Source of the DNA: Delftia acidovorans NBRC 14950
Lineage (GTDB): Bacteria > Pseudomonadota > Gammaproteobacteria > Burkholderiales > Burkholderiaceae_C
NCBI RefSeq assembly: GCF_001598795.1
Contig: NZ_BCZP01000010.1
Coordinates: 207,082 to 239,081, forward strand
Length of the DNA: 32,000 nucleotides
Direction: 5' to 3'
Shown: positions 5,608 to 29,522 of the stretch, in pieces
Layout of the letters: every line of letters starts with the position of its first letter
Numbering within the stretch: the stretch's first letter is position 1
Made by a program: the position numbers and the translations under genes
The notes under the pieces: generated by a model
Told to the model about the DNA's origin: nothing
Database searches by the model: none
Seen by the model: only the letters and a program-made list of their open reading frames with translations

Positions 5608-5657
5608 GTTGCTTTCCTTGGTTTCTTGTATTCGGTGGTCGATGGGGGCTGCGCGGC

Positions 5658-6692: not shown

Positions 6693-6721
6693 TGCGGTGT
6701 CTCGGTTGGGTGCCGGCCTGC

Positions 6722-8331: not shown

Positions 8332-8359
8332 CAGGCGGGTCCGATCGGTGGCGGCGCTG

Positions 8360-9970: not shown

Positions 9971-9972
9971 GC

Positions 9973-11217: not shown

Positions 11218-11239
11218 CGGTTGCTCCTGGAACGTTCGG

Positions 11240-12352: not shown

Positions 12353-12426
12353 TGAGAGGCTCCGCCCTGGATGACGGCAAGATGAAATTCGGTCATGAAC
12401 GCGCGGGCCGTTGTCATGTTTTGTTC

Positions 12427-12452
12427 AAAAAAACTTCTTATACGGAAGTTTT
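12427..12452 (-). terminator. AT-rich hairpin plus U tract: weak terminator or operator between the orphan gene and the PBP/TelA operon
   Basis: Perfect 8-bp inverted repeat AAAACTTC-N7-GAAGTTTT. On the minus strand it is followed by further T residues. It lies 68 nt downstream of the 12520 stop, in a local AT-rich patch. Confidence 0.35.
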
Positions 12453-12486
12453 GTGACACAACGACGACACGCGGCCCGGCCCGCGC

Positions 12487-12534
12487 CGCGACTACCTCAA
12501 CGCGACTATCTCAGCGCGACTACCTCAGCGCGAG
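12487..12534. repeat. Three and a half tandem copies of a 14-nt unit CGCGACTAYCTCAR
   Basis: cgcgactacctcaa / cgcgactatctcag / cgcgactacctcag / cgcgag are read directly. The array overlaps the last codons and TAG stop of the 12520..14016 gene. It lies 135-180 nt upstream of the PBP-like gene start. Confidence 0.8.
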
Positions 12535-14281: not shown

Positions 14282-14324
14282 TTGACCTGAGTCAAGACTA
14301 TGGAGTGAACTGCATCGATATAAC
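14282..14324 (+). promoter_or_regulatory. FNR/FixK/Anr-type box (TTGAC-N4-GTCAA) with a -10-like TATAAC at class II spacing
   Basis: Perfect inverted arms TTGAC ctga GTCAA at 14282-14295 fit TTGA-N6-TCAA. TATAAC lies at 14319-14324. A start site about 7 nt after the -10 would put the box centre near -42, as in class II FNR promoters. The implied 5' UTR before fabI is about 250 nt. Confidence 0.4.
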
Positions 14325-14396: not shown

Positions 14397-14426
14397 GCAT
14401 GCAAACCTTTGATTTGCATGCATCAA
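14397..14426. promoter_or_regulatory. Overlapping palindromes in the putative 5' UTR or control region
   Basis: GCATGCAAA-N7-TTTGCATGC (9-bp arms, 14397-14421) overlaps TTGAT-N8-ATCAA (14409-14426). Read directly from the sequence. Confidence 0.4.
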
Positions 14427-14578: not shown

Positions 14579-15346
14579 ATGACGCTATTGGCTGGCAAAA
14601 AGGGCCTGATCGTCGGCATCGCCAACCGCGACAGCATTGCCTGGGCCTGTGCCCGGGCCATGCATGCGGCGGGCGCCGAGATCGGCGCGACCTGGCAGAA
14701 CGACAAGGCCCGTGTGCATGTGGAGCCCCTGCTCGACGAGATCGGTGCCGAGCTGCGCATGCCGCTGGACGTGGGCGACGACGAGCAGATGCGCGCACTG
14801 TTCGATGCCGCCGCCGTGCGCTGGGGCCGGCTGGACTTCGTGCTGCACGCCGTGGCCTACGCCCCGCGCAAGGACCTGCAGGGCCGCGTGGTGGACAGCT
14901 CCCGCGAGGGCTTTGCGCTGGCCATGGACATCTCCTGCCACTCCTTCATCCGCATGGCGCACCTGGCCGAGCCGCTGATGGCCGCCAGCGGCGGCAGCCT
15001 CATGACGCTGAGCTACCTGGGCGCCAGCGAGGTCATGCCGCACTACGGAATCATGGGCCCGGTCAAGGCCGCGCTGGAGTCCACCACGCGCTACCTGGCG
15101 GCCGAACTGGGCCCCTCGCGCATCCGCGTCAATGCCGTCTCGCCCGGGCCCATCGCCACGCGCGCGGCCTCGGGCATTGCCGCGTTCGATGAACTCGTGG
15201 CCGACAGCGTGCGCCGCTCGCCCATTGCCGGCGAATTGCAGCCCGACGACGTGGGGCCGCTGTGCGCCTTCCTGGCCTCGGACGGGGCGCGCGCCATCAC
15301 GGGCTGCACGCTGTATGTCGATGGCGGCCACCACATCCTCAACTAG
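14579..15346 (+). CDS. fabI: FabI-family NADH-dependent enoyl-ACP (or enoyl-CoA) reductase
   Basis: 255 aa. GKKGLIVGIANRDSIAWACARAMHAAGAE matches the FabI N-terminal Rossmann segment. The Y-x6-K catalytic motif reads YGIMGPVKAALE. NAVSPGPIAT is also present. GGAG lies 8 nt before the ATG. Confidence 0.85.
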   Translation: MTLLAGKKGLIVGIANRDSIAWACARAMHAAGAEIGATWQNDKARVHVEPLLDEIGAELRMPLDVGDDEQMRALFDAAAVRWGRLDFVLHAVAYAPRKDLQGRVVDSSREGFALAMDISCHSFIRMAHLAEPLMAASGGSLMTLSYLGASEVMPHYGIMGPVKAALESTTRYLAAELGPSRIRVNAVSPGPIATRAASGIAAFDELVADSVRRSPIAGELQPDDVGPLCAFLASDGARAITGCTLYVDGGHHILN

Positions 15347-15379
15347 CGGCTGCCGCACCGGCGCCCCGCAGCACTGCAG

Positions 15380-16855
15380 ATGACCCTCCCATTCCCCCGA
15401 ACCGCCGCCGCCGCGCTGGCAGCCGCACTGGCCGCAGCCCTGGCAGGATGTGCCTCCCTGGCGCCGCCGCACGAGCCGCCGCCCCTGCCCACGCCCGAGG
15501 CCTGGCCTGCCCATCTGCAGGCGGGCGCCCAGGGTGTCGCCGCCGCCGGCCTGCCCTGGCGCGAGTACTTCACCGACCCCGTGCTGCGCCAGCTCATCGC
15601 CACCGCGCTGGAGCACAACCGCGACCTGCGCGTGGCCGCGCTGCGCGCCGAAGAGGCGCGCGCGGCCTTCCAGATCCAGCGCTCCGAGCTGTTCCCGGCC
15701 ATTGGCGTGGGCGGCCAGGCCGCACGGGCTCGCGTGCCTGGCGACCTCAACCTCTCGGGCCGCTCCGTGGTCAGCGGCGAGTACCGCGCCGAGGTCGGCT
15801 TCAGCAGCTGGGAGCTGGACCTGTGGGGCCGCGTGCGCAGCCTCAAGGACGCGGCCCTGCAGACCTGGCTGGCCAGCGATGCGGGCCGCCACGCCGTGCA
15901 GACCGCGCTGATCGCCCAGGTGGCCGACGGCTACCTGGGCCTGCGCGAGCTGGACGAGCGCGTGGCCATTGCGCGCGAGACGCTGGCCACGCGCCAGGAA
16001 TCCTTTCGCATCTTCACGCGCCGCGAGGCCGTGGGCGCCAGCTCGCGCCTGCAGCTGGCCCAGGTCCAGACCCTGCTGACCCAGGCGCAGGCCCTGCTGG
16101 CCCAGCTGGAGCTGGCACGCGCGCAGCAGCTGCATGCCCTGGCCCAGCTGGTCGGCGCCCACCCGGGCCCGCTGCCCGCCGCCGCACCCTTTGACGACGC
16201 CCTGGTGCTGGCCGAGCTGCGGCCGGGCCTGCCCTCGGAACTGCTCACGGCGCGGCCCGACATTGCCGCGGCCGAGCACCAGCTGCGCGCGGCCCGGGCC
16301 CAGATCGGCGCGGCGCGCGCCGCCTTCTTCCCGCGCATTGCGCTCACGGCCCGCTGGGGCACGGCCAGCGCCGAACTCGACGGCCTGTTCGACGGCGGCA
16401 GCCGCGCCTGGGCCTTCGTGCCCACGGTGTCCCTGCCCATCTTCGACGGCGGCCGGCGCCGCGCCAACCTGGAGCTGGGCGAGATCCGCAGCGACATGGC
16501 CGTGGCCCAGTACGAGAAAGCCATCCAGACCGCCTTCCGCGAGGTGGCCGATGGCCTGGCCGCACGCCGCTGGCTGTCCGAGCAGATCACCGTGCAGCGC
16601 ACCGCCGTGCAGGCCCAGGCCGAGCGCGCGCGGCTGGCGCAGCTGCGCTACGACAACGGCTCGGCCGCCTACCTGGAGGTGCTGGACGCCCAGCGCGACC
16701 TGCTGGCCGCACGCCAGCAACTGGTGCAGGCGCGGCGCGCCCTGCTGTCCAGCCAGGTGGGCCTGTATGCCGCCCTGGGCGGCGGCAGCGGCGCGGAACC
16801 TGCCGCGCTGCCCGCCACCCTGCCGGCCACGCCTGCCGATCCCCCGAATTCCTGA
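15380..16855 (+). CDS. Outer-membrane efflux lipoprotein, NodT/OMF family
   Basis: 491 aa. Lipobox is AALAGCASL. Duplicated TolC-like halves carry LRVAALRAEEARA, LDLWGRVRS, ARAQIGAARAAFFPRIALT and YDNGSAAYLEVLDAQR. Confidence 0.88.
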   Translation: MTLPFPRTAAAALAAALAAALAGCASLAPPHEPPPLPTPEAWPAHLQAGAQGVAAAGLPWREYFTDPVLRQLIATALEHNRDLRVAALRAEEARAAFQIQRSELFPAIGVGGQAARARVPGDLNLSGRSVVSGEYRAEVGFSSWELDLWGRVRSLKDAALQTWLASDAGRHAVQTALIAQVADGYLGLRELDERVAIARETLATRQESFRIFTRREAVGASSRLQLAQVQTLLTQAQALLAQLELARAQQLHALAQLVGAHPGPLPAAAPFDDALVLAELRPGLPSELLTARPDIAAAEHQLRAARAQIGAARAAFFPRIALTARWGTASAELDGLFDGGSRAWAFVPTVSLPIFDGGRRRANLELGEIRSDMAVAQYEKAIQTAFREVADGLAARRWLSEQITVQRTAVQAQAERARLAQLRYDNGSAAYLEVLDAQRDLLAARQQLVQARRALLSSQVGLYAALGGGSGAEPAALPATLPATPADPPNS

Positions 16856-16872
16856 AGCCTCCGGACCCGCCC

Positions 16873-17964
16873 ATGGACAAGAACACCTCTCTGAAGAACA
16901 AGATCGTGCCGATCGCCGCCGTGGCGGTCCTGGCCCTCGTGGCCTGGTGGGCCTGGAAGACCTTCACGCCCAAGGGCCCGGGCGAGGGCTTCGTCGGCAG
17001 CAACGGCCGTGTCGAGGCCACCGAGATCGACATCTCCACCAAGCTGCCCGGCCGCGTGGAGGAAATCCTGGTGCGCGAGGGCGACTTCGTGCAGGCCGGC
17101 CAGCCCGTGGCGCGCATGCAGATCGACACCCTGCGCGCCCAGCGCCAGGAAGCCGACGCCATGCGCCAGCAGGCCGAGCACAGCGTGGCCGCGGCCGAGG
17201 CCCAGGTCACCCTGCGCCGCAGCGACCTGGCCGCCGCCCAGGCCCTGATCGTGCAGCGCGAGACCGAGGTGGATGCCGCGCAGCGCCGCTTCAAGCGCTC
17301 GGAAACGCTGGCGCGCGAGGGCGCCTCTTCGGTGCAGGAGCTCGATGACGACCGCGCCCGCGTGCGCGGCAGCGAGGCGGCGCTGGCCGCCACGCGCGCC
17401 CAGGCCGCCGCCGCCCAGGCCGCCGTGAAGGCGGCCGAGGCCCAGGTGGTGGGCGTGCGCTCCCAGGTGCAGGCGGCCACGGCCACGGTGGCGCGCGTGC
17501 AGGCCGACATCGACGACGGCGTGCTCAAGGCCCCGCGCGACGGCCGCGTACAGCTGCGCGTGGCCCAGCCCGGCGAAGTGCTGGGCGCAGGCGGGCGCGT
17601 GCTCAACCTGCTGGACCTGTCCGATGTCTACATGACCTTCTTCGTGCCGGAAACTGCAGCCGGGCGCATTGCACTGGGCAGCGAGGTGCGCCTGGTGCTG
17701 GACGCCGCGCCCGAGTACGTGATTCCGGCCCGCGTCTCCTTCGTCGCCAGCCAGGCCCAGTTCACGCCCAAGACCGTGGAGACCGCCAGCGAGCGCCAGA
17801 AGCTGATGTTCCGCGTGCGCGCCCAGATCCCGCCGGAGCTGCTGCGCCGCCATCTGGAACAGGTCAAGACCGGCGTACCCGGCATGGCCTGGCTGCGCAC
17901 CGATGCCAGCCATGAGTGGCCCGCCAACCTGGCCATCAAGCTGCCAGCCCAGCCTGCGCAATGA
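16873..17964 (+). CDS. HlyD-family membrane fusion protein (YhiI/YbhG-like)
   Basis: 363 aa. It has an N-terminal anchor helix, a lipoyl-like segment ([36 protein letters not shown]), a long Ala/Gln coiled coil, and a beta-barrel end (GVPGMAWL). The stop overlaps the next ATG (ATGA). Confidence 0.85.
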
Positions 17965-20717
17965 GCGAGAGCACGACGCCCCACGCCAGCGGCTGGGTCG
18001 TGCGCCTGAAGGGCGTGCACCAGCGCTATGGCCAGGTCGAGGCCCTGGCGGGCATCGACCTGGACATTCCCGAAGGCCGCATGGTCGGCCTGATCGGGCC
18101 GGACGGCGTGGGCAAGTCCAGCCTCATGGCGCTGATCTCCGGGGCGCGCAAGATCCAGGAAGGCAGCGTCGAGGTGCTGGGCGGCGACATGGCCCAGCGC
18201 CGGCACCGCGAGGCCGTCTGCCCGCGCGTGGCCTACATGCCGCAGGGCCTGGGGCGCAACCTCTATCCCACGCTGTCGGTGGAGGAGAACCTGCAGTTCT
18301 TCGCGCGCCTGTTCGGCCATGACGCGGCCGAACGGCGCCGGCGCATCGACGATCTCACCCAGGCCACGGGCCTGCGCAAATTCCTGGAGCGGCCGGCCGG
18401 CAAGCTGTCGGGCGGCATGAAGCAGAAGCTGGGCCTGTGCTGCGCGCTGATCCACGACCCCGACCTGCTGATCCTGGACGAGCCCACCACGGGCGTGGAC
18501 CCGCTGGCGCGCGCCCAGTTCTGGGACCTGATCGCGCGCATCCGCCGCCAGCGCCCCGGCATGAGCGTGCTGGTGGCCACGGCCTACATGGACGAGGCCC
18601 AGCGCTTCGACTGGCTGGTGGCCATGGACGAGGGCCGCGTGCTGGCCACGGGCACGCCGGCCGAGCTGCTGCAGCGCACGGGCAGCCGCTCGCTGGAAGA
18701 GGCCTTCATCGCCCTGCTGCCCGAAGAGAAAAAGCGCGGCCATGCGCCCGTGACCATCGCTCCCCTGCCCGAGGGCGGCGAGGACGACATCGCCATCGAG
18801 GCCAGGGACCTGACCATGCGCTTTGGCGACTTCGTCGCCGTGGACCATGTGTCCTTCCGCATCCGCCGCGGCGAGATCTTCGGCTTCCTGGGCTCCAACG
18901 GCTGCGGCAAGAGCACCACCATGAAGATGCTGACCGGCCTGCTGCCGGCCAGCGAGGGCCAGGCCTGGCTGTTCGGCCAGCCCGTGGACCCGCGCGACAT
19001 CGACACGCGCCGCCGCGTGGGCTACATGACCCAGGCGTTCTCGCTGTACGGCGAGCTGACCGTGCACCAGAACCTGGTGCTGCACGCGCGCCTGTTCGGC
19101 GTGCCCGAGGCGGACATTCCCGCGCGCGTGGCCGAGATGCTGCAGCGCTTCGACCTGCAGGCCGCGCAGCACAGCCTGCCGGCCGCCCTGCCGCTGGGCA
19201 TGCGCCAGCGCCTGTCGCTGGCCGTGGCCATGGTGCACAAGCCCGAGCTGCTCATCCTGGACGAGCCCACCTCGGGCGTGGACCCCGTGGCGCGCGACGG
19301 CTTCTGGCGCCTGCTGGTGGAGCTGTCGCGGCGCGACCGCGTGACCATCTTCATCTCCACCCACTTCATGAACGAGGCCGAGCGCTGCGACCGCATGTCC
19401 ATGATGCATGCGGGCAAGGTGCTGGACAGCGACACGCCCGCGCGCCTGGTGGCCAAGCGCGGCGCGGCCACGCTGGAGGAAGCCTTCATCGGCTACCTGG
19501 TCGAGGCCGGTGGCGGCGAGGCCCCAGCCGTCGAGGAACCGGCCGCGCCTGCCGCCACCGCTGCCGTGGAAACGCACACCGCGCGCCGCCGCCATTTCAG
19601 CGCCCAGCGCATGCTCAGCTATGTCTGGCGCGAAGCGCTGGAGCTGCAGCGCGACCCGGTGCGCGCCACGCTGGCCCTGGTGGGCTCGCTGATCCTGATG
19701 TTCGTGATGGGCTACGGCATCAGCCTGGACGTGGAGGACCTGCGCTTTGCCGTGCTGGACCGCGACCAGACCACCATCAGCCGCAGCTATGCGATGAGCC
19801 TGTCGGGCTCGCGCTACTTCATCGAGCAGCCGCCGCTGACCGACTACGACGCACTGGACCGCCGCATGCGCAGCGGCGAGCTGACCCTGGCCATCGAGAT
19901 CCCCCCGGGCTTTGCGCGCGACGTGCTGCGCGGCGGCTCCGTGCAGGTGGGCGCCTGGTTCGACGGCGCCATGCCCACGCGCGCCGAGACCGTGCGCGGC
20001 TACCTGCAGGGCATCCACCAGCACTGGCTGACCGAGCAGGCGCGCGAGCGCCTGGGCGTGGCGCCGGCCGGCCTGATCGACATCCAGACGCGCTTTCGCT
20101 ACAACCCCGACGTGCGCAGCCTGCCGGCCATGGTGCCGGCCGTCATGCCCCTGCTGCTGCTGCTTTTGCCCGCCATGCTGACGGCGCTGGCCGTGGTGCG
20201 CGAGAAGGAAAGCGGCTCCATCACCAACCTCTACGTCACGCCGGTCACGCGCACCGAATTCTTGCTGGGCAAGCAACTGCCCTATGTGGTGCTGGCCATG
20301 CTGAACTTCCTGCTGATGTGCCTGATGGCCGTCACCCTGTTCGGCGTTCCCGTGACGGGCAGCTTTGCCACGCTGGCCCTGGCGGCGCTGATCTTCAGTG
20401 GCGCCTCCACGGGCTTCGGCCTGCTGGCCTCCACGCTGACGCGCAGCCAGATCGCCTCGATGTTCCTGGTGCTGATCGGCACGCTGATCCCCACCACGCA
20501 GTTCGCGGGCCTGGTCGATCCCGTGTCCTCGCTGGAGGGGGCGGGCCGCGTCATCGGCGAGGTCTATCCGGCCAGCCACATGATCGCCATCAGCCGCGGC
20601 GTGTTCAGCAAGGCGCTGGGATTTAGGGAGCTGGCCGGCTCGTTCGGGCCGCTGCTGCTGTCCGTGCCGGTGATCCTGGGCCTGGCCATTGCACTGACCA
20701 GAAAGCAGGAGAGCTGA
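17961..20717 (+). CDS. rbbA: RbbA/YhiH-type fused ABC transporter: two ATPase domains plus a C-terminal ABC-2 permease domain
   Basis: Start set at the ATG at 17961 (ATGA overlap with the MFP stop), giving 918 aa. Walker A motifs are GPDGVGKSS and [12 protein letters not shown] signatures are LSGGMKQK and LPLGMRQR. Six TM helices follow after about residue 560. Confidence 0.85.
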
Positions 20718-20718
20718 C

Positions 20719-21849
20719 ATGCGCACCCGCCTTTTCTCCAACATCTACCGGCTGGGCGTCAAGGAGCTGTGGAGCCTGTGGCGCGACCCCGTGCTGCTGG
20801 TGCTCATCGCCTATGTGTTCACGGTCTCCATCTACACGGCGGCCACGGCCATGCCCGAGAGCCTGCACAACGCGCCCATCGCCATCGTGGACGAGGACGG
20901 CTCGCCGCTGTCGCAACGCATCGCGGGCGCCTTCTATCCGCCGCAGTTCGCGCCGCCGGCCATGATCGATCGCACGCAGATGGACCCGGGCATGGACTCG
21001 GGCACCTACACCTTCGTGCTCAACATCCCGCCCAACTTCCAGCGCGACGTGCTGGCGGGCCGCGCCCCCGAGCTGCAGCTGAACGTGGACGCCACGCGCA
21101 TGAGCCAGGCCTTCACGGGCAACAGCTATGTGCAGCAGATCGTCTCGGCCGAGGTCAGCGAGTTCGTGCGGCGCTTTCGGGGCGCCACCGCCCTGCCCGT
21201 GGACCTGGTGGTGCGCGCGCGCTTCAATCCGGCGCTGGACAAGGTCTGGTTCGGCGGGCTGATGCAGATCATCAACAACGTGACCATGCTGTCCATCATC
21301 CTCACGGGCGCGGCCCTGATCCGCGAGCGCGAGCACGGCACGGTGGAGCACCTGCTGGTCATGCCGGTGACACCGACCGAGATCATGCTGGCCAAGATAT
21401 GGTCCATGGGACTGGTCGTGCTGGTCACCGCCTTTGCCTCGCTCAACCTCGTGGTGCGCGGCGCCCTGGGCGTTCCCATCGAAGGCTCGCTGCCGCTGTT
21501 CCTGGCGGGGGCCGCGCTGTGCCTGTTCGCCACAACGTCGCTGGGGATCTTCCTTGCCACGCTGGCGCGCAACATGCCACAGTTCGGCATGCTGCTGGTG
21601 CTCGTGCTGCTGCCGCTGCAGCTGCTGTCGGGCGCCATGACGCCGCGCGAAAGCATGCCCGAGCTGGTGCAGAACATCATGCTGGCCGCGCCGACCACCC
21701 ACTTTGTCGAGCTGTCGCAGGCCATCCTCTACCGCGGAGCGGGGCTGGACGTGGTCTGGAAGCCCTTCCTCGCGCTGGCCGCGATCGGCTCCGTGCTGTT
21801 CGCCCTCACGCTCACCCGTTTTCGCAAGACCATCAGCCAGATGGCCTGA
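20719..21849 (+). CDS. yhhJ: ABC-2 type permease (YhhJ-like partner of RbbA)
   Basis: 376 aa. It has an N-terminal TM helix, a large periplasmic loop, and then five TM helices (ALIREREHGTVEHLLVMPVTPTEIMLAK is the typical ABC-2 segment). It starts 1 nt after the preceding stop. Confidence 0.85.
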   Translation: MRTRLFSNIYRLGVKELWSLWRDPVLLVLIAYVFTVSIYTAATAMPESLHNAPIAIVDEDGSPLSQRIAGAFYPPQFAPPAMIDRTQMDPGMDSGTYTFVLNIPPNFQRDVLAGRAPELQLNVDATRMSQAFTGNSYVQQIVSAEVSEFVRRFRGATALPVDLVVRARFNPALDKVWFGGLMQIINNVTMLSIILTGAALIREREHGTVEHLLVMPVTPTEIMLAKIWSMGLVVLVTAFASLNLVVRGALGVPIEGSLPLFLAGAALCLFATTSLGIFLATLARNMPQFGMLLVLVLLPLQLLSGAMTPRESMPELVQNIMLAAPTTHFVELSQAILYRGAGLDVVWKPFLALAAIGSVLFALTLTRFRKTISQMA

Positions 21850-21902
21850 TTTCGTTCCCGCCGCCAAGGCATCTTTCCATCTCAACCAGCAAGGAGTTTC
21901 AT

Positions 21903-22412
21903 ATGAGCGCACAGACCATTCCCCTCCATCTGCTCAAGGCACAGCTTGAACTGCAGCTGCACCTGAGCCGGCTGCTGCAGGAAAGCGGCCAACAGTGGCT
22001 GGAGCATGCCGCACGCAACGGCCCCGAGCGCATCGCCGAGACCGGCAGCGAGATCGAGGGCGTGCAGCAGACCAGCAGCTGGCAGGAGCTGGCCACCCTG
22101 CCCGCCCAGGCCTTCTGGCGCCACGCCCACCTGCGCATGGGCCATGCCCAGGCCCTGGCCCAGACCGCCATGGCCAGCCAGATGACCCTGGCCCAGGGCG
22201 TGCAGCAGGCCGTGCACGACTGGCAGCAACAGGTGGCAGCCACGCTGGGCAACAGCACCCAGGGCGCAGCCGACACCGCCGTGCCGTGGAGCGACCTGCT
22301 CGCCCGCTGGACCTCGGCCGTGCAGTCCGTGGCCCAGCCCGCCCATGCGGCGCAGCAGCCCATTGCGGCAGCCGCCGCCGAAACGGCCCGCGACACCACA
22401 GCCCAGGGCTGA
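21903..22412 (+). CDS. Small helical phasin-like protein (tentative)
   Basis: 169-aa ORF embedded in the tracked frame 20769..22412. ATG at 21903 with AAGGAG upstream. It is Gln/Ala-rich and all-helical, and the central SWQELATLPAQ turn resembles the phasin_2 layout. Assigned by resemblance and by context next to a PhaC-like gene. Confidence 0.45.
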   Translation: MSAQTIPLHLLKAQLELQLHLSRLLQESGQQWLEHAARNGPERIAETGSEIEGVQQTSSWQELATLPAQAFWRHAHLRMGHAQALAQTAMASQMTLAQGVQQAVHDWQQQVAATLGNSTQGAADTAVPWSDLLARWTSAVQSVAQPAHAAQQPIAAAAAETARDTTAQG

Positions 22413-22549
22413 CGGCCCCCAAGGAAGCCGCCACGCGGTCCCGCAGGTTCGGGGCCGCATGGGCGCGGGGCGGCCATCCGCACCCAGCCACAAGCAATCA
22501 CACGCAATCTAAGAGCAGGGCATGACATGCCGGTAAAGGAGTGGGCCAG

Positions 22550-24961
22550 ATGAACGAGAACCTGCAGAGCCACGGCACCGTGGACGTGGGAGGGATGTGG
22601 GGCGATCCGATGAAGCTGTCGCAGGCAGCCGCGCAATACGCCACCGATGCCTGGCAGCGCTCGCTGCTGTATGCCGACATCCGGCGCCAGCGTGGCAACC
22701 AGTACCGCGAGCATCTGGCCGAGGAAGTGCCCAATGTGCTGAGCTTCCGGGCCGAGATCGTGATGTCGGGCCTGGACCTGCCGCGCCCCGTCAACTACGG
22801 CCTGGCACGCATCGCGCCCATGGAGGGCACGGTCATCGACCCGGCCAAGCGCCCCTTCATCGTCGTCGATCCGCGCGCGGGCCACGGCCCCGGCATCGGC
22901 GGCTTCAAGCCCGACAGCGAGATCGGCGCCGCGCTCAAGGCCGGCCACCCCTGCTACTTCGTGGGCTTCCTGCCCGACCCCGTGCCCGGCCAGACCGTCG
23001 AGGACGTGATGCGCGCCGAGGCCCAATTCGTGCGCAAGGTCGCCGAGCTGCACCCCGAGAGCCGGGGCAAGCCCGCCGTCATCGGCAACTGCCAGGCCGG
23101 CTGGCAGATCCTCATGACGGCCGCCGTCTGGCCCGAGCTGTTCGGCCCCATCATCGTGGCCGGTGCGCCGCTGTCGTACTGGGCCGGCGACAACCCCATG
23201 CGCTACGGCGGCGGCCTCATGGGCGGCAGCTGGATGACGGCGCTGACCAGCGACCTGGGCGCGGGCCGCTTCGACGGCGCATGGCTGGTGCAGAACTTCG
23301 AGAACCTCAACCCGGCCAACACGCTGTGGGAAAAGCAGTACCAGGTCTATGCCGACGTGGACACCGAGGGGCCGCGCTACCTGGGCTTCGAGAAGTACTG
23401 GGGCGGCTATGTCTTCCTGGAAGGCCGCGAGATGCAGTACATCGTGGACAACCTGTTCATCGGCAACCGGCTGGCCACGGCCGAGCTGACGACCTCGGAC
23501 GGCGTGCGCATCGACCTGCGCAACATCCGCTCGCCCATCGTGGTGTTCTGCTCGCATGGCGACAACATCACGCCGCCGGGCCAGGCCCTGGGCTGGATCA
23601 CCGACCTGTACCGCGACGACGAGGACATCGCCGCCCACGACCAGACCATCGTCTTCGCCACGCATGACAGCATCGGCCACCTGGGCATCTTTGTCTCGGG
23701 CGCCGTGGGCCGCAAGGAGCACCGCGAGTTCGCGGCGCACATCGACATCATCGACCTGCTGCCCGCCGGCATCTACCGCGCCGAGATCGCCGACCGCCCG
23801 GCCGGTGTGCCGGCACAGGATCTGACCGACGACGCCTACCTGATGAAGATCCGCCGCAGCGACCTGGCCGAGGTGCGCTCCATCGTCCGGCCCGACCCCG
23901 AAAGCGAGCGCCACTTCGCCGCTGCCGCGCGCGTCTCCGAAATCAACCTGGCCCTGTACCGCAACACCGTGCAGCCCTGGGTGCAGGCGCTGTCCACGCC
24001 GCTGTCTGCGCGCTGGCTGCAGGCCATGCACCCGCTGCGCGTGGGCTATGAATGCTGGTCGGACTCGCACCCGCTGGCGCCCGTCGTGGCCCAGGTCGCC
24101 GAGCATGCGCGCGAGGACCGCCACCCCGTCGAGCCCGACAACCCCTTCCTGAAGGCGCAGCAGGCCATGTCGCAGGCCGTGGTGCATCTGCTCGACACCT
24201 ACCGCGACCAGCGCGATGCCATGCAGGCGCGGCTGTTCCACGCCATCTATGGCTCGCCCCTGGTCCAGGCCCTGGCCGGCCAAAGCCGGCAGGACGACGG
24301 CCCGCCGCGCCCGCACCCCGGCGAATCGCCCGAGCACTGCCAGTACATGCGCCAGGAGCTGGCACGGCTGCACGAAAGCGTGGCCCAGGGCGGGCTGTAC
24401 GAGGCTGTCATCCGCGCCCTGTTCCACGTGCTGCGCGCACGCGGCGAGGCCGATGAGCGCCACTTCCGCCACGCCTGGCGGCTGCTGCAGGACCACCTGG
24501 GCGGCGTGCCGCCCGACATGGCGCAGTTCCGCCGCATCGTGCGCCGCCAGGCCCTGCTGATGCAGCGCGAGCCCGACGCCGCCATGGCCGCCATCCCCCG
24601 GTTGCTGGCCGCCTCGCCCGCCGCCGACATCCGCTGGGGCATGACCACGGTGGACGAGCTGGCCAACCAGGGCGGCAACCTCAGCGATGCCGAGCACCAG
24701 CGCCTGCTGCAGGCCATGGGGCATTTCGTGCAGGCGCTGGAGGCCGCCGAGTCCAGGCAGGCGAAAGAGCAGGCCGAGCGGCACCCAGCCATCGCGCCAG
24801 CCTCGGTGGCCGAGCCTGAACCCGCACCTGTGACGGCACCTGTGACGGCACCTTCGGCAGCGTCTCTGACCGCACCTGTTCCCGACTCCGCGCCTGCCGC
24901 CAAGCGCCCCGCACGCGCCCAGGCCAGCCGTGCACACCCCAGCCCCCGGAAAAAGCGATGA
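22550..24961 (+). CDS. DUF3141-type alpha/beta hydrolase, PHA-synthase-like (Cys nucleophile)
   Basis: The ATG at 22550 is preferred because AAGGAG lies 8 nt upstream; the GTG at 22541 abuts that AAGGAG. 803 aa. Lipase-box-like VIGNCQAGW has Cys encoded at 23090-23092. Downstream candidates for the triad are CSHGDNITPP (Asp) and THDSIGHLGIF (His). The C-terminal half is long and helical and ends in a low-complexity APVT-repeat tail. Confidence 0.7.
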   Translation: MNENLQSHGTVDVGGMWGDPMKLSQAAAQYATDAWQRSLLYADIRRQRGNQYREHLAEEVPNVLSFRAEIVMSGLDLPRPVNYGLARIAPMEGTVIDPAKRPFIVVDPRAGHGPGIGGFKPDSEIGAALKAGHPCYFVGFLPDPVPGQTVEDVMRAEAQFVRKVAELHPESRGKPAVIGNCQAGWQILMTAAVWPELFGPIIVAGAPLSYWAGDNPMRYGGGLMGGSWMTALTSDLGAGRFDGAWLVQNFENLNPANTLWEKQYQVYADVDTEGPRYLGFEKYWGGYVFLEGREMQYIVDNLFIGNRLATAELTTSDGVRIDLRNIRSPIVVFCSHGDNITPPGQALGWITDLYRDDEDIAAHDQTIVFATHDSIGHLGIFVSGAVGRKEHREFAAHIDIIDLLPAGIYRAEIADRPAGVPAQDLTDDAYLMKIRRSDLAEVRSIVRPDPESERHFAAAARVSEINLALYRNTVQPWVQALSTPLSARWLQAMHPLRVGYECWSDSHPLAPVVAQVAEHAREDRHPVEPDNPFLKAQQAMSQAVVHLLDTYRDQRDAMQARLFHAIYGSPLVQALAGQSRQDDGPPRPHPGESPEHCQYMRQELARLHESVAQGGLYEAVIRALFHVLRARGEADERHFRHAWRLLQDHLGGVPPDMAQFRRIVRRQALLMQREPDAAMAAIPRLLAASPAADIRWGMTTVDELANQGGNLSDAEHQRLLQAMGHFVQALEAAESRQAKEQAERHPAIAPASVAEPEPAPVTAPVTAPSAASLTAPVPDSAPAAKRPARAQASRAHPSPRKKR
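24824..24853 (+). repeat. Tandem 12-nt repeat GCACCTGTGACG, about 2.5 copies, encoding APVTAPVTAP
   Basis: Read directly from the sequence. Lies in the 3' tail of the DUF3141 gene. Confidence 0.8.
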
Positions 24962-26418
24962 ACCTCTCCCCCGATTCCGATGCGGCCCTGCCGCCCGAAG
25001 ACCTGGCCCTGCTGCGCAACCACAGCTTTGACGAACTGGACGTGGGCGACAGCGCCAGCCTGGAACGCACGTTGAGCACCCAGGACCTGCGCCTGTTTGC
25101 CGCCCTGTCGGGCGCGGCCGTGGCCGACGGCACTGGTGCCGGTGCCGGTGCCGGCACGGTTGCCGGCGCCGACGATGACGACACGGCCCTGATCGCCCAC
25201 GGCATGTGGGGCGGCATGCTGCTGGCCTCGGTGCTGGGCACGCGCCTGCCCGGCCCCGGCACCACCCTGGTCGGCCAGACGCTGCGCTTTCTGGCGCCGC
25301 TGGCCGCAGGCGACCGGCTGACCGTGCGCGTGGAGGTGCTGGCCAAGCAGGCCGAGCAGCGCCAGGTCACGCTGGCCGTGGCCTGCAACAACCAGCATGG
25401 CGCCGCCGTGATCGAGGGCCAGGCCACCGTGCATGCGCCTGCGCGCCACATCGAGCGCCAGCGCACCAGCCTGCCCGAGATCCGCCTGGAAGCCGGTGGA
25501 CGCGACGGCCTGCAGCGCCTGCTGGCCCATGTGGCCGGCCTGCCGCCCATCCGCGTGGCCGTGGTCCATCCCTGCGACGAGCCCAGCCTCTCGGCCGCGC
25601 TGGACGCGCGCCGCGAAGGCCTGATCGACCCCGTGCTGGTGGCCCCGCGCGCGCGGCTGGAGGCCGTGGCAGCCGAGCACGGGCTGGACCTGGGCGGCCT
25701 GCGCATCGAGGACGTCCCGCACAGCCACGCCGCCGCCACGCGCGGCGCCGAGCTGGCCGCCTGCGGCGAGGTCGAGGCCATCATGAAAGGCAGCCTGCAC
25801 ACGGACGAACTCATGGCCGAGGTCGTGGCCGCCGCCGCCGGCCTGCGCACCAAGCGCCGCGTCAGCCACTGCTTCGTGCTGCAGACGCCGCACTACCCGC
25901 GCCCGTTCATCGTCACCGATGCGGCCATCAACCTCGCGCCCGACCTGCAGCAAAAGGCCGACATCGTGCGCAACGCCATCGCCCTGGCACATGCCATCGG
26001 CGTGCCCGAGCCCAAGGTCGCCATCCTGGCCGCCGTGGAGACCGTGAGCCCGCACATGCCGGCCACGCTGGACGCCGCCGCGCTGTGCAAGATGGCCGAC
26101 CGGGGCCAGATCGAAGGCGGCGTGCTCGACGGGCCGCTGGCCTTCGACAACGCCGTGTCCATGGCCGCCGCGCGCACCAAGGGCATCGATTCGCCCGTGG
26201 CGGGCCAGGCCGACATCCTGGTCGTGCCCGACCTGGAAAGCGGCAACATGCTGGCCAAGCAGCTCATGTACATGGGCGAGGCGGCCAGCGCCGGCATCGT
26301 CATGGGAGCCAAGGTGCCCGTGATCCTGACCAGCCGCGCCGACAGCCGCGCCTCGCGCATTGCCTCCTGCGCCATCGCCCTGCTGCTGGCCCACCGCTAC
26401 CGGAACTCCCCGCCATGA
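24958..26418 (+). CDS. Fusion of a MaoC-like hotdog domain and a phosphate acetyl/butyryl-transferase (PTA_PTB) domain
   Basis: 486 aa. ATGA overlap with the upstream stop. The N-terminal 150 aa are hotdog-like (IAHGMWGGMLLASVLGTRLPGPGTTLVGQTLRFLAPLAAGDRLTVRVEV). The C-terminal domain has PTB/PTA blocks (MKGSLHTDELM, FIVTDAAINLAPD, PKVAILAAVE, DILVVPDLESGNMLAK). Confidence 0.85.
   Translation: MNLSPDSDAALPPEDLALLRNHSFDELDVGDSASLERTLSTQDLRLFAALSGAAVADGTGAGAGAGTVAGADDDDTALIAHGMWGGMLLASVLGTRLPGPGTTLVGQTLRFLAPLAAGDRLTVRVEVLAKQAEQRQVTLAVACNNQHGAAVIEGQATVHAPARHIERQRTSLPEIRLEAGGRDGLQRLLAHVAGLPPIRVAVVHPCDEPSLSAALDARREGLIDPVLVAPRARLEAVAAEHGLDLGGLRIEDVPHSHAAATRGAELAACGEVEAIMKGSLHTDELMAEVVAAAAGLRTKRRVSHCFVLQTPHYPRPFIVTDAAINLAPDLQQKADIVRNAIALAHAIGVPEPKVAILAAVETVSPHMPATLDAAALCKMADRGQIEGGVLDGPLAFDNAVSMAAARTKGIDSPVAGQADILVVPDLESGNMLAKQLMYMGEAASAGIVMGAKVPVILTSRADSRASRIASCAIALLLAHRYRNSPP
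25135..25152 (+). repeat. (GGTGCC)x3 hexanucleotide repeat encoding GAGAGA inside the hotdog domain
   Basis: Read directly from the sequence. It is part of the low-complexity insert GTGAGAGAGTVAGADDDD. Confidence 0.8.
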
Positions 26419-27662
26419 TCTCCGCCCACACCGCATCCTCCCCCGCCCGCGAACTGGTCGTGGTGCTCAACTGCGGCTCGTCCAGCATCAAGTTCGCCGT
26501 CTTCGACGGTGCCCAGCGCCCGCTGCCGCGCAAGCCGCTGTGGAACGGCAAGGTCCAGGGCATCGGCGGGCCCGCGCCCGACTTCGGCGAGAGCGGCGTG
26601 CCGCCCTTTGCCATTGCCCTGGATGCCGCTCACCCCTACCGCGCCGCGCTGCAGCTGATCCGCGAGCGCATCACCGCGCGGCTGGCGCAGCTGGACGGCG
26701 CCCGCGTGGCCGCCGTCGCCCACCGCGTGGTGCACGGCGGCAGCCGCTACTTCGAGCCCGTGCGCGTCGATGCCGGCGTGCTGGCCGACCTCAAGGCCTT
26801 CATCCCGCTGGCGCCGCTGCACCAGCCCTTTGCGCTGGAGGCCATGGACATCCTGCTGCGCGAGCGGCCCGAACTGGTGCAGGTGGCCTGCTTCGACACC
26901 GCCTTCCACCACACGCTGCCCAAGGTCGAGCAACTGCTGCCCCTGCCGCACGCGGCCTGGGAGCGCGGGCTGCGCCGCTACGGCTTCCACGGCCTGTCCT
27001 ACGAATACATGGCCACCGCCCTGCCCGAGCGCCATGGCGACCTGGCACGCGGGCGCACCCTGGTGGCCCACCTGGGCAGCGGCGCCAGCCTGTGCGCCAT
27101 GCAGGGCCTGCAAAGCGTGGCCACGACCATGGGCTTCTCTGCGCTGGATGGCCTGATGATGGGCACGCGCACCGGCGCGCTGGACCCCGGCGCCGTGATC
27201 TACCTGATGGAAATCGAAAAGCTCAGCCTGCAGGAAGTGGGCCGCATCCTGTACCACGAGTCCGGCCTGCTGGGCGTCTCGGGCACCTCGTCCGAGCCGC
27301 GCGTGCTGCTGCCGCTGGAGTCAGGCGGCGATGCCCAGGCCGAGCGCGCGCGCGATGCGCTGGCCCTGTACGTGCGGCGCATCGTGCGCGAGATCGGCGC
27401 CCTGGTCGCCGTGCTGGGCGGCCTGGACCTGCTGGTGTTCACCGCAGGCGTGGGCGAGCACAGCGCCGAGATACGGCGGCGCGTGTGCGAGGGCCTGGGC
27501 TTTCTGGGCCTGCGGCTGGACGCCGAGGCCAATGCGCGCGATGCGGCCGTGATCTCGGCCACCGGCAGCGCCGTCACCGTGGGCGTGGAGCCCACCAACG
27601 AGGAATGGGTGGCAGCGCGCCATGCGCTGCGCTGGCTGCCGGGCAACGCGATCCCCGCATGA
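26415..27662 (+). CDS. ackA: Acetate/propionate/butyrate-family kinase
   Basis: 415 aa, embedded in the tracked frame 25206..27662. ATGA overlap with the upstream stop. VLNCGSSSIKF, HRVVHGG, FDTAFHHTLP, RRYGFHGLSYEY and FTAGVGEHS are ASKHA acetate-kinase signatures. Confidence 0.9.
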   Translation: MISAHTASSPARELVVVLNCGSSSIKFAVFDGAQRPLPRKPLWNGKVQGIGGPAPDFGESGVPPFAIALDAAHPYRAALQLIRERITARLAQLDGARVAAVAHRVVHGGSRYFEPVRVDAGVLADLKAFIPLAPLHQPFALEAMDILLRERPELVQVACFDTAFHHTLPKVEQLLPLPHAAWERGLRRYGFHGLSYEYMATALPERHGDLARGRTLVAHLGSGASLCAMQGLQSVATTMGFSALDGLMMGTRTGALDPGAVIYLMEIEKLSLQEVGRILYHESGLLGVSGTSSEPRVLLPLESGGDAQAERARDALALYVRRIVREIGALVAVLGGLDLLVFTAGVGEHSAEIRRRVCEGLGFLGLRLDAEANARDAAVISATGSAVTVGVEPTNEEWVAARHALRWLPGNAIPA

Positions 27663-27675
27663 GTGTGAACAGGCC

Positions 27676-28026
27676 CTAGGAACGATCGTCCTGCGCACCG
27701 CCTTCGCGCAGCCGCGCGAACTCGCGGTGCTCGTAGGCAATGCATTCCTCCATGAGGTGGCGGTACACCGCCTCCATCATGTCGGGCTGGCCGCCCTCGG
27801 CGGCCGTGCGCTCGCGCACGCGGCGCACGATGGCCTCGATGCGGCCCTCGTCGCGCACCTGGGCCGCATCGGCCTTGATGCGCGCGGCCTGCTGCATGTA
27901 GCCCATGCGCGTGACCAGCAGCGGCACCAGCACATCGTCCAGCGCATCCACATTGCGGCGCACATCCAGCATGTCGGTGCAGTGCTGCACCAGGTCGATG
28001 GCCTGCTTGGCGCGGTCCGTGCTCAT
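27676..28026 (-). CDS. AroQ-class chorismate mutase-like protein (possibly PchB-type), translationally coupled to trpE
   Basis: 116 aa, MSTDRAKQAIDLVQHCTDMLDVRRNVDALDDVLVPLLVTRMGYMQQAARIK.... The R-x(10)-D/L-LL-R helix pattern matches AroQ helix 1, and the protein is all-helical. The ATG at 28026 overlaps the trpE TGA (ATGA). Confidence 0.7.
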   Translation of the reverse strand: MSTDRAKQAIDLVQHCTDMLDVRRNVDALDDVLVPLLVTRMGYMQQAARIKADAAQVRDEGRIEAIVRRVRERTAAEGGQPDMMEAVYRHLMEECIAYEHREFARLREGGAQDDRS

Positions 28027-29522
28027 TCCAGTCCTTCCTCCACCAGCTCGGCCGCGCGCATCAATGCGCGCGCCTTGTGCTCGGTCTCTTTCCATTCCAT
28101 CTCGGGCACGGAATCGGCCACCACGCCGGCGGCGGCCTGCACGTAGAGCGTGCCGTCCTTGATCACGCCGGTGCGGATGGCAATGGCCAGGTCCATGTCG
28201 CCCGCAAAGCTCAGGTAGCCGCAGGCGCCGCCGTAGATGCCGCGCTTGGTGGGCTCCAGCTGGTCGATGACCTCCATGGCATGCACCTTGGGCGCGCCCG
28301 TCAGCGTGCCGGCCGGGAAGGTGGCCTTGAACACGTCCATGTTGTCCATGCCGTCGCGCAGAATGCCCTCCACGTTGCTGACGATGTGCATCACGTGGCT
28401 GTAGCGCTCCACGGCAAAGGCCTCGGTCACCTTCACGCTGCCCGTCTTGGCGATGCGGCCGATGTCGTTGCGCGCCAGGTCGATCAGCATCACGTGCTCG
28501 GCGCGTTCCTTGGGGTCGGCCACCAGCTCCTTTTCGGTGGCCTTGTCGGCCTCGGGCGTGGCGCCGCGCGGGCGCGTGCCGGCCAGCGGGCGGATGGTGA
28601 CCTTCTGGCCCTCGTCCGTGTTCTCCTGGCGCACCAGGATCTCGGGGCTTGCGCCCACCACATGGAAATCGCCCAGGTGGTAGTAGTACATGTAGGGGCT
28701 GGGATTGAGCGAACGCAGCGCGCGGTACAGGCTCAAGGGGCTGGCCGTGAAGCGCTTGTGGATGCGCTGGCCCACCTGCACCTGCATGAAGTCGCCCGCG
28801 GCGATCAGCTCCTTGGCCTTCTCCACGGCCGCCAGGTAGTCTTCCTTGGCAAAGCTGCGCTGGGCCGGATGGCTCTCGCCGGCCTTGATCTGCGGCGCGC
28901 TGACCGAGTAGCGCAGCAGATCCTTCAACTGCCGCAGCCGCTTCTTGGCGCGCGTATAGGCCTCGCTCTCGCCGGGGTTGGCATAGACGATCAGGTACAG
29001 CTTGCCCGACAGGTTGTCGATCACCGCCACTTCCTCGCACTGCAGCAGCAGGATGTCGGGGCAGTTGAGCGTATCGGGCGGGCAGGAATCTTCCAGCTTC
29101 TTCTCGATATAGCGCACGGCGTCGTAGCCGAAGTAGCCGGCCAGCCCGCCGCAAAAACGCGGCAGCCCCGGGCGCAGCGCCACCTTGAAGCGCTTTTGGT
29201 AGGCAGCGATGAAATCCAGCGGATTGCCCTTGGCCGTCTCCACCACCTGGCCATCGGTCACCACCTCGGTGCATGCCGCATCGCCGAAGCCGCTGGCGCG
29301 CAGCAGCGTGCGTGCAGGCAGGCCGATGAAGCTGTAGCGCCCGAAGCGCTCGCCGCCCACCACGGACTCCAGCAAAAAGCTGTGCTTGCCGTCACCGCCC
29401 GCATGGGCCAGCTTGAGGTAGAGGGACAGGGGGGTTTCGAGATCCGCAAACGCCTCGACCATCAGAGGGATGCGGTTGTAGCCCTGCGCAGCAAGGCTCT
29501 TGAATTCGAGTTCGGTGATCAC
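28023..29522 (-). CDS. trpE: Anthranilate synthase component I
   Basis: 499 aa. LLESV..GERFGRYSFIG, PYMYYY, GTLTGAPK and GIYGGACGYLSFAGDMDLAIAIRT are hallmark TrpE blocks. GTG start with GGAG 9 nt upstream. Confidence 0.93.
   Translation of the reverse strand: MITELEFKSLAAQGYNRIPLMVEAFADLETPLSLYLKLAHAGGDGKHSFLLESVVGGERFGRYSFIGLPARTLLRASGFGDAACTEVVTDGQVVETAKGNPLDFIAAYQKRFKVALRPGLPRFCGGLAGYFGYDAVRYIEKKLEDSCPPDTLNCPDILLLQCEEVAVIDNLSGKLYLIVYANPGESEAYTRAKKRLRQLKDLLRYSVSAPQIKAGESHPAQRSFAKEDYLAAVEKAKELIAAGDFMQVQVGQRIHKRFTASPLSLYRALRSLNPSPYMYYYHLGDFHVVGASPEILVRQENTDEGQKVTIRPLAGTRPRGATPEADKATEKELVADPKERAEHVMLIDLARNDIGRIAKTGSVKVTEAFAVERYSHVMHIVSNVEGILRDGMDNMDVFKATFPAGTLTGAPKVHAMEVIDQLEPTKRGIYGGACGYLSFAGDMDLAIAIRTGVIKDGTLYVQAAAGVVADSVPEMEWKETEHKARALMRAAELVEEGLE

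Follow-up and report, generated by a model that had tools for sequence, protein, structure and literature searches.

A nine-gene Delftia cluster around a PhaC-like DUF3141 protein and its possible part in using polyhydroxybutyrate at low oxygen

What might nine co-directional genes do together when they place polyester-related proteins, an acyl kinase and a complete efflux pump side by side? The question is raised by a 32,000-nt stretch of Delftia acidovorans NBRC 14950 (contig NZ_BCZP01000010.1, positions 207,082 to 239,081; the whole stretch is called the window below). How obligate or near-obligate aerobes such as Delftia, Burkholderia, Ralstonia, Pandoraea, relatives of Achromobacter and rhizobia survive without oxygen, in habitats that range from soil, biofilms and activated sludge to the cystic-fibrosis lung, is poorly understood. 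A first-pass annotation, made from the letters alone, had joined the nine genes into one route, in which stored polyester is released as hydroxyacyl-CoA and converted to ATP and free acid, NADH is re-oxidised by an enoyl reductase, and the acid is pumped out. In the analysis reported here the gene identities, the PhaC-like nature of the DUF3141 protein and the co-occurrence of the genes stood and the link to anoxia proved plausible, whereas the oddity of the pump, the hydratase step and the export of acid did not. Our preferred explanation, to which we give somewhat less than an even chance and which is drawn from gene context, is that the genes are a reduced copy of a horizontally spread, probably FNR/Anr-controlled set that links the polyhydroxybutyrate (PHB) granule, once oxygen is exhausted, with substrate-level phosphorylation and the disposal of NADH.

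The nine open reading frames (ORFs) were recovered on the plus strand at 14579-27662 with exactly the coordinates and spacers first placed (33, 17, −4, 1, 53, 137, −4 and −4 nt, in order), and their earlier identities were upheld by Pfam and NCBIfam-type models. In a genome of 69% GC, the GC content at third codon positions (GC3) was 0.89-0.94 in all nine, which is the codon-position pattern of real genes. The DUF3141, transacylase and kinase genes are consecutive, with each pair overlapping by 4 nt; a pattern scan of the plus strand detected nothing resembling a terminator within the cluster, a search with Rfam gave no RNA element, and the nine genes may be transcribed together. A contig of D. 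tsuruhatensis (L001) carries the same genes at 96-100% amino-acid identity. The genes are as follows.

14579..15346, plus strand: fabI, a FabI-type NADH enoyl reductase, 255 aa (NF005717, 409.7 bits against a cut-off of 337; adh_short_C2, E = 1e-84)
15380..16855, plus strand: outer-membrane factor (OMF) of the NodT family, 491 aa (TIGR01845, 397 bits; two OEP stretches)
16873..17964, plus strand: HlyD-type periplasmic adaptor (membrane fusion protein, MFP), 363 aa (HlyD_3, HlyD_D23; TIGR01730)
17961..20717, plus strand: RbbA-type fused ATP-binding cassette (ABC) protein, 918 aa (NF033858, 1578.6 bits against a cut-off of 1050; two ABC_tran stretches and ABC2_membrane_3)
20719..21849, plus strand: YhhJ-like ABC-2 permease, 376 aa (ABC2_membrane_3, E = 7.6e-38)
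21903..22412, plus strand: divergent Phasin_2-type protein, 169 aa (own Phasin_2 score 11.3 bits, orthologues above threshold; GC3 0.89)
22550..24961, plus strand: DUF3141 protein, 803 aa (PF11339, E = 5.8e-295)
24958..26418, plus strand: fusion of a hotdog (MaoC-like) domain and a short Ptb/Pta-type phosphotransacylase, PRK08190 type, 486 aa (NF006045, 711.7 bits; PTA_PTB, E = 2.6e-45)
26415..27662, plus strand: AckA-family acyl kinase, 415 aa (PF00871, E = 6.8e-100; TIGR00016, 332.7 bits against a cut-off of 293.4)

The DUF3141 protein, whose family comprises 3424 clusters at 50% identity (E ≤ 0.001), was matched by PF11339 only: PhaC_N, Abhydrolase_1 and the NCBIfam synthase models gave no match, no Pfam family matched its C-terminal 200-360 residues, no signal peptide or membrane segment was found in it, and a profile search of the PDB returned only spurious helical matches and no solved structure matching by sequence. 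Its AlphaFold2 model (pLDDT 77.9, pTM 0.79) combines an alpha/beta core with an extended helical region and a basic tail that is disordered, and when this model was searched against the PDB by Foldseek, PhaC catalytic domains came first (6k3c, 5t6o, 5hz2 and 5xav; E = 4e-6 to 5e-5; target TM-score about 0.5). The family is highly conserved, and in its alignment Cys181 (GNCQAGW), Asp338 (GDNITP) and both His372 and His377 (THDSIGHLG) are invariant; hhalign placed Cys181 and Asp338 on the catalytic Cys and Asp of PhaC at a probability of only 5.9%, and either of the two His residues would complete the candidate triad. A published classification of alpha/beta-hydrolases likewise assigns DUF3141 to the same cluster as PhaC, one that has a Cys-Asp-His triad (PMC11878206). 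The features apparently in common with PhaC and with the thiolytic depolymerase PhaZa1 are the alpha/beta-hydrolase core and a putative nucleophilic Cys in a G-x-C-x-G-type elbow together with candidate Asp and His residues; unlike PhaC, DUF3141 has no PhaC_N and carries an extra helical region of ~350 residues and a basic tail. Thiolysis of PHB by PhaZa1 to 3-hydroxybutyryl-CoA (3HB-CoA), reportedly described by Uchino and colleagues in 2007, is established biochemistry. These results support a predicted PhaC-like Cys enzyme, as had been proposed before, and are compatible with a polymerising, a thiolysing or a hydrolysing activity.

The tail of the protein (window 24800-24961, residues ~750-803; pLDDT < 50) is disordered, rich in Pro, Ala, Lys and Arg, and variable in length among homologues, and it resembles the basic tails known from PhaM and PhaF, two proteins that tether granules to the nucleoid. 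Granule proteomics of R. eutropha by Sznajder and colleagues in 2015 reportedly placed two proteins with a synthase/depolymerase signature, A0671 and B1632, on granules, and their deletion is said to have slightly slowed PHB mobilisation; B1632 may be the DUF3141 protein beside pta2 and ackA2. Some database records name DUF3141 proteins ‘3-hydroxyalkanoate synthetase’, a name for which the literature search returned nothing specific.

For the 169-aa product of the gene preceding DUF3141, Phasin_2 (PF09361) was the best match but was not significant (11.3 bits, E = 0.41, profile positions 7-98; gathering threshold 24.9). However, its positional orthologues score 28.5-40.2 bits, above the threshold, and homologues 48-53% identical to it score 29.8-30.9 bits. 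The protein is therefore treated as a divergent relative of the phasins, phasin-like by position and below formal family membership, and its earlier description as phasin-like is upheld through the orthologues at the same position.

To see how far the set is conserved, 80 genomic loci were collected by alignment of the DUF3141 protein, with one genome per species and 52-96% identity to the query; being the best DUF3141 matches, they are biased toward close relatives. The nine window proteins were scored against these loci by tblastn, on which the counts of the window's modules are based, and neighbouring genes were called by a simple GC3-based caller, clustered and annotated with Pfam. In the 56 loci whose two flanks each extend to at least 8 kb, pta was found in 34, ackA in 29, fabI in 22 and the pump in 33. 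All modules were present in 9 loci, the pump only in 12, and pta-ackA-fabI without the pump in 11, while DUF3141 followed by pta and then ackA was the arrangement in 29-34 of the 56. The placement of pta directly downstream of DUF3141, often with a 4-nt overlap, and of the pump directly upstream is seen across alpha-, beta- and gammaproteobacteria, down to 52% identity. The window order (fabI, pump, phasin/DUF3141) recurs identically in L001, L003, L025, L032-L037, L072 and L083; since these include D. tsuruhatensis (L001), Comamonas composti (L003) and Pseudomonas (L083), the arrangement is not due to chance. The first-pass annotation had suggested that DUF3141, pta, ackA and fabI go together in Burkholderiales and had asked for a synteny comparison, by which this co-occurrence proved real (Ralstonia, Burkholderia, Paraburkholderia and Cupriavidus, and also Bradyrhizobium): the genes are syntenic elsewhere, and the pump is common though not universal.

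Other loci add PHB genes to this set. A class I PhaC gene lies upstream of fabI or beside DUF3141 in 7 loci, a PhaB-like short-chain dehydrogenase/reductase between phasin and DUF3141 in 17, and a divergent TetR regulator upstream in 9. PHB genes of the phaC, phaB, phaA or phaR type are found inside the cluster in L003, L013 and L083: C. composti has phaC upstream of fabI and phaB between phasin and DUF3141, and the Pseudomonas contig L083 carries, all co-directional, phaC-fabI-OMF-MFP-rbbA-yhhJ-phasin-phaB-phaA-DUF3141-maoC/pta-ackA, followed by two transporters, phaR and a second phasin, which is the order of the window with four PHB genes added. A conjugative Burkholderia plasmid bears phbB, ackA, HlyD-rbbA-permease-TolC, DUF3141, pta, ackA and fabI beside insertion sequence (IS) elements, and the Ralstonia solanacearum megaplasmid bears DUF3141 (named ‘3-hydroxyalkanoate synthetase’)-pta-ackA-fabI. 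The PHB synthesis genes and phaR are missing from the window, which is therefore a reduced version of the set, and no remnant of phaB or phaA was found in the 137-nt spacer or in the rest of the window.

Relatives of this cluster have been drawn or described before, though never characterised biochemically, and the window adds a reduced member. A 2025 preprint on P. aeruginosa genomic islands drew phaC, phaR, phaP, DUF3141, eutD, ackA, fabI, phbB and paaJ together with a pump, emrA-rbbA-yadH, as gene context only, proposing no function for DUF3141 or the pump (bioRxiv 10.1101/2025.03.12.642780). The Pseudomonas class I phaC islands and our loci L083-L085 share phaP, DUF3141, eutD/pta, ackA, fabI and emrA-rbbA-yadH with the window; they differ in having phaC, phaB, phaA and phaR as well and a hotdog domain that matches Pfam MaoC_dehydratas. 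The shorter operon DUF3141-pta-ackA-fabI of Ralstonia, Paraburkholderia, Burkholderia, Cupriavidus and Bradyrhizobium has four of the nine genes, with pta right after DUF3141 and FNR/FixK-type boxes upstream, but its fabI stands last and not first, its pta has no hotdog domain, and it lacks the RbbA pump, some versions having a resistance-nodulation-division (RND) pump or a DUF3302/HlyD-like pair. In a phaR mutant of B. diazoefficiens, blr3456-3459 (hypothetical, pta, ackA2 and fabI) and the adjacent nodN rose 3.9- to 9-fold together with FixK2 targets (PMC10888616).

A similar gene set sits in the low-oxygen-activated lxa locus of B. cenocepacia J2315 (BCAM0275a-0323), deletion of which lowers anoxic survival (PMC3721108, PMC4981469). 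Its ackA, phaB, class I phaC, pta/ptb and Zn-dependent alcohol dehydrogenase (Zn-ADH) genes and its ABC/ABC/MFP/outer-membrane transporter rise 3.8- to 242-fold at low oxygen, and the locus carries an Anr/FNR-like TGA-N6-TCA motif (PMC3721108, PMC4981469). Shared with the window are the acetate kinase, the phosphate acetyl/butyryl transferase, a transporter of ABC, ABC ATP-binding-membrane, adaptor and outer-membrane proteins, and the TGA-N6-TCA motif. The lxa locus is otherwise different in spanning ~50 genes, including many for universal stress proteins (USPs), Zn-ADH and ribonucleotide reductase, and the Delftia cluster is without phaB, phaC, ADH and USP genes; in the lxa tables consulted neither DUF3141 nor fabI is listed, and BCAM0295 and BCAM0301 are given as ‘hypothetical’.

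The region upstream of fabI, an AT-rich divergent promoter region of 562 nt, contains two sites of the same type.

14282..14295, no strand assigned: perfect FNR/Anr/FixK-type palindrome TTGACCTGAGTCAA (TTGA-N6-TCAA), 297 nt upstream of fabI and 266 nt from the divergent gene starting at 14016
14409..14422, no strand assigned: degenerate FNR-like site TTGATTTGCATGCA, 157 nt upstream of fabI, with a perfect TTGATTTGCATCAA at the homologous position in Delftia sp. PS-11

A 4-bp insertion into an FNR box was considered for the second site and rejected, as the site has the same length as that of PS-11 and differs by substitutions only. Across the loci, 55 of the 70 exact FNR boxes are intergenic, although intergenic DNA makes up 18.5% of the sequence. 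An exact box is present in 23 of the 91 upstream regions that belong to cluster genes, compared with 34 of the 499 that do not (odds ratio 4.6, p = 1e-6), and the boxes precede whichever cluster gene is first, be it fabI, OMF, phasin or DUF3141. These boxes suggest that the cluster is probably under FNR/Anr-type control, and together with the lxa locus they make the earlier proposal of a link to anoxia plausible. In Delftia, too, expression would respond to oxygen.

In the fusion protein, the first-pass annotation had seen a MaoC-like hotdog domain, and its route passed through crotonyl-CoA. On comparison with 21 orthologues, however, the hotdog domain of the window has SGAAVADG in place of the hydratase motif SGDxNPxH (D-x-N-P-x-H), and with 19.3 bits it stays below the Pfam MaoC cut-off of 27. 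The same SG-AAVADG-type sequence with a Gly-Ala insert occurs in D. tsuruhatensis (L001), Delftia sp. PS-11 (L002) and C. composti (L003); the hotdog domains of Janthinobacterium, Pusillimonas, Rubrivivax and Microvirga keep SGDxNPxH, and those of a Lysobacter/Stutzerimonas group have lost the motif His. With the motif lost, the step from 3HB-CoA to crotonyl-CoA is not assignable to the window fusion protein. The (Gly-Ala)n insert itself, at ~25129-25155 (residues 58-66), sits where the active-site motif of a hydratase would be expected and is six residues longer in D. tsuruhatensis, making it a length-variable coding repeat inside a degenerate domain. The transacylase is predicted to be of the short Ptb/Pta type, for which longer acyl substrates are possible though not indicated. 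In FabI (SYLGASEVMPHYGIMGPVK), which passes its equivalog model, the active-site Tyr/Tyr/Lys spacing of E. coli FabI is kept; the enzyme is accordingly a proposed reducer of enoyl thioesters, whether of acyl carrier protein (ACP) or of CoA, and hence a proposed NADH sink.

Based on these results, the preferred mechanism would run as follows. DUF3141, with its PhaC fold and candidate Cys-Asp-His triad, would act together with its own phasin at the granule and interconvert polyester and (R)-3-hydroxybutyryl-CoA, by thiolysis when mobilising. The Ptb-like transacylase and the AckA-like kinase would turn acyl-CoA (acetyl-, butyryl- or 3-hydroxybutyryl-) into acyl-phosphate and then into ATP and free acid, while FabI would reduce an enoyl thioester and thereby re-oxidise NADH. 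The full versions of the set encode all the enzymes that a redox-balanced split requires: with PhaB, PhaA and an intact MaoC domain, two 3-hydroxybutyrate (3HB) units could yield two molecules of acetate, one of butyrate and about three of ATP. The RbbA/YhhJ/MFP/OMF pump would be a conserved partner of DUF3141. If true, the ester bond of PHB would be preserved first in a thioester, next in an acyl-phosphate and finally in ATP, with an NADH sink built in, which is a concrete and testable route; nothing specific on a PHB-to-ATP fermentation was found in the literature searched. A function for DUF3141 would fill a gap in the biochemistry of PHB mobilisation and explain part of the lxa phenotype. 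A partial parallel is found in P. aeruginosa, in which AckA-Pta pyruvate fermentation under Anr control yields maintenance ATP without growth in anoxia (as cited in PMC3759415). This too is an aerobe with a phosphotransacylase and an acetate-family kinase, but the substrate is pyruvate, the Pta is long, and there is no link to PHB, FabI or a pump.

Several observations weigh against this mechanism. As to the enzyme at its centre, generic esterases follow only slightly behind PhaC in the Foldseek search, the profile-profile match to PhaC is as weak as the hhalign probability above indicates, and the literature searched held no biochemical data on any DUF3141 protein. As to the acyl route, the transacylase falls below the Ptb equivalog cut-off (TIGR02706, 306.6 against 410.5 bits), the kinase is not of the Buk type (TIGR02707 butyrate kinase, 41.6 against 289.1 bits), and acetyl-CoA may be the sole substrate. 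The hotdog domain lacks the catalytic Asp and His in the window and is missing altogether in 19 loci, and none of phaA, phaB, phaC and phaR lies within the 32 kb, so that the crotonyl-CoA branch needs enzymes encoded elsewhere. The perfect box TTGACCTGAGTCAA stands between two divergent units, far from fabI, and is assignable to either. The comparison of window and lxa genes, including that of the lxa pump with RbbA/YhhJ, is one of product names, and blr3456 is a candidate DUF3141 gene. Finally, the 12 loci that have DUF3141 and the pump without pta, ackA and fabI indicate that the core role of DUF3141 may not be ATP generation.

Under oxygen limitation some of the same genes could work in the opposite direction, with reductant disposal and not ATP from PHB as the benefit: the kinase and transacylase would activate acetate or keep up a pool of acetyl-CoA and acetyl-phosphate, carbon would enter PHB through PhaA, PhaB and PhaC, DUF3141 would stand in for the PHA synthase or assist it, and FabI would provide one more NADH sink. 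The authors of the lxa study proposed that electrons are disposed of through PHA synthesis, with acetate feeding into PHA (PMC3721108), and the presence of phaC and phaB inside many cluster versions, the ‘3-hydroxyalkanoate synthetase’ name on some DUF3141 records, the occurrence of DUF3141 in the glycogen- and phosphate-accumulating genera Competibacter, Contendobacter and Dechloromonas, and the polyphosphate kinase (PPK2) gene adjoining DUF3141 in 7 loci all fit it. On the other hand, DUF3141 would be redundant with PhaC where both occur and is without the PhaC_N domain, acetate activation would spend ATP exactly when ATP is scarce, and the window holds no phaA, phaB or phaC; we regard this direction as unlikely.

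The PPK2 gene is close upstream of DUF3141 in L068, L069, L075, L076, L079 and L080 (~8480-9470, minus strand) and in L074 (616-1437), which belong to alphaproteobacteria, Bradyrhizobium and a Contendobacter genome, and in 5 of the 7 the promoter region of DUF3141 contains an FNR-type box, a hint that polyphosphate and the DUF3141 module are connected.

Another explanation, also improbable in our judgement, is that the cluster is a co-regulated island of independent functions held together by shared regulation and joint horizontal transfer, with Pta-AckA serving acetate overflow or pyruvate fermentation as it does in P. aeruginosa, FabI as a spare enzyme of fatty-acid synthesis, the pump as TetR-controlled drug or toxin efflux, and phasin and DUF3141 in ordinary PHB turnover. 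The modules do combine variously, PS-11 has lost the pump with its other genes intact, TetR genes lie divergently upstream in 9 loci, the cluster travels on a conjugative plasmid beside IS elements and in genomic islands, and its alphaproteobacterial neighbours are other low-oxygen functions that also have FNR boxes. Yet pta downstream and the pump upstream of DUF3141 are kept across three proteobacterial classes, to 52% identity, despite rearrangements, and a FabI paralogue accompanies the set in three different positions.

The tripartite ABC pump is tightly linked to the other genes. Its exporter set is complete, with an RbbA equivalog of two ATP-binding domains and one ABC-2 membrane domain, an ABC-2 permease, a HlyD adaptor and an OMF. 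The E. coli YhiI-RbbA-YhhJ operon has the HlyD adaptor, the fused RbbA ATPase/ABC-2 protein and the ABC-2 permease in common with it but no dedicated OMF and no PHB genes; on RbbA/YhhJ function the literature search returned nothing useful. MFP, RbbA and YhhJ are found near DUF3141 in 33 of the 56 loci; in 28, yhhJ stands directly upstream of it and is read in the same direction. Loci of the pump-linked form were seen in Comamonadaceae, Oxalobacteraceae, Alcaligenaceae, Pandoraea, a Lysobacter/Dyella/Dokdonella group and Stutzerimonas, and, in divergent orientation, in the alphaproteobacteria Microvirga, Xanthobacter and a Hyphomicrobiaceae genome.

Delftia sp. PS-11 (L002) has fabI-phasin-DUF3141-pta-ackA with the pump missing, and in its fabI-phasin spacer (L002 9242-9350) the final ~55 nt of yhhJ, together with the spacer that follows (window 21795-21902), can still be aligned. 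This remnant of the yhhJ 3′-end indicates that the pump is ancestral in Delftia and was deleted in the PS-11 lineage; an insertion of the pump into a pump-less Delftia operon was considered and rejected, the remnant showing the opposite. An embedded pump had at first looked unusual, but it turns out to be the common arrangement, ancestral in the genus and drawn earlier for the P. aeruginosa islands. PS-11 carries a clean deletion scar of the four-gene pump of ~6.5 kb and represents a natural pump knockout.

Export of the acid product, as first proposed for the pump, is not supported on bioenergetic grounds. The route would gain about one ATP per acyl-CoA, an ABC exporter would spend at least as much per molecule, and ATP-driven, stoichiometric export of acid in bulk would therefore cancel the gain, an objection that loses some of its weight should the module serve redox disposal under micro-oxia. 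Some export function nevertheless seems part of the system, because non-orthologous efflux systems stand behind the module where the ABC pump is missing: a HlyD+AcrB RND pair in Bradyrhizobium-type loci or DUF3302 with a HlyD-like protein in other alphaproteobacteria, with an FNR-type box ahead of each. This counts against a purely accidental link. These other systems follow fabI at L076 15382-19653, L080 14520-18834 and L068 15315-17064 and in L069 and L079.

One could picture DUF3141 and the pump as a production-and-export pair, in which DUF3141 makes or trims short 3HB oligomers or another ester-linked lipid, the pump exports them across both membranes, and pta-ackA-fabI is an optional add-on. 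ABC-2 exporters typically carry polymers and glycolipids. No other neighbour adjoins DUF3141 directly as often as the pump does, the 12 loci with DUF3141 and the pump only keep the idea alive, and the replacement of the pump by other efflux systems suits it. Methyl-esterified 3HB oligomers from bacterial PHB protect endosymbiont and host cells against oxidative stress, according to the abstract of one study (PMC10883064). Such a pair, dedicated to PHB-derived oligomers or other ester-linked lipid secreted under low oxygen and going beyond a valve for acid excretion, is nonetheless quite improbable. Neither a signal peptide nor a membrane segment is present in DUF3141, the protein has been retained in PS-11 after loss of the pump, and in Ralstonia and Paraburkholderia the pump is never close by.

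Outside the cluster, a minus-strand operon at 7708-14016 diverges from fabI and shares with it the promoter region that contains the FNR-type box. It encodes TelA (toxic anion resistance) at 9973-11217 and a protein with von Willebrand factor A (VWA) and solute-binding domains inside 8360-10624, while its proteins of 238, 370 and 498 aa had no match in Pfam, NCBIfam or PADLOC. ARAGORN called an 80-nt tRNA-Val(GAC) on the plus strand at 10869-10948, inside the TelA coding region; as Rfam has no tRNA there, the call is probably a false positive.

The cluster and the TelA/VWA operon both lie within the ~20.7 kb that separate trpE from trpG-D-C: trpC, trpD and trpG lie at 4804-7309 and chorismate mutase and trpE at 27676-29522, all on the minus strand. 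In five Pandoraea species (L026-L028, L031 and L038) the pump-DUF3141 block is also flanked by trp genes, with trpE on one side and trpG on the other, on the same strand, in the four for which trpG was called; in the fifth only trpE and trpD were called. The cluster likewise adjoins chorismate mutase-trpE in C. composti and Delftia PS-11. An old insertion site and a hot spot are the two explanations for the trp-flanked position.

Further downstream, at 29880-31701 on the plus strand (and at 17247-19068 in L001), lie three overlapping ORFs, the last of which encodes a patatin phospholipase. It scores 210 bits with the NCBIfam model ‘CBASS cGAMP-activated phospholipase’ (cut-off 200) and matches PADLOC phospholipase effectors, and one of the two small proteins upstream of it has a faint Phd/YefM match. 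No cyclase gene was recognised within ~3 kb downstream of it in D. tsuruhatensis. From these matches, the unit may represent an orphan or atypical defence effector.

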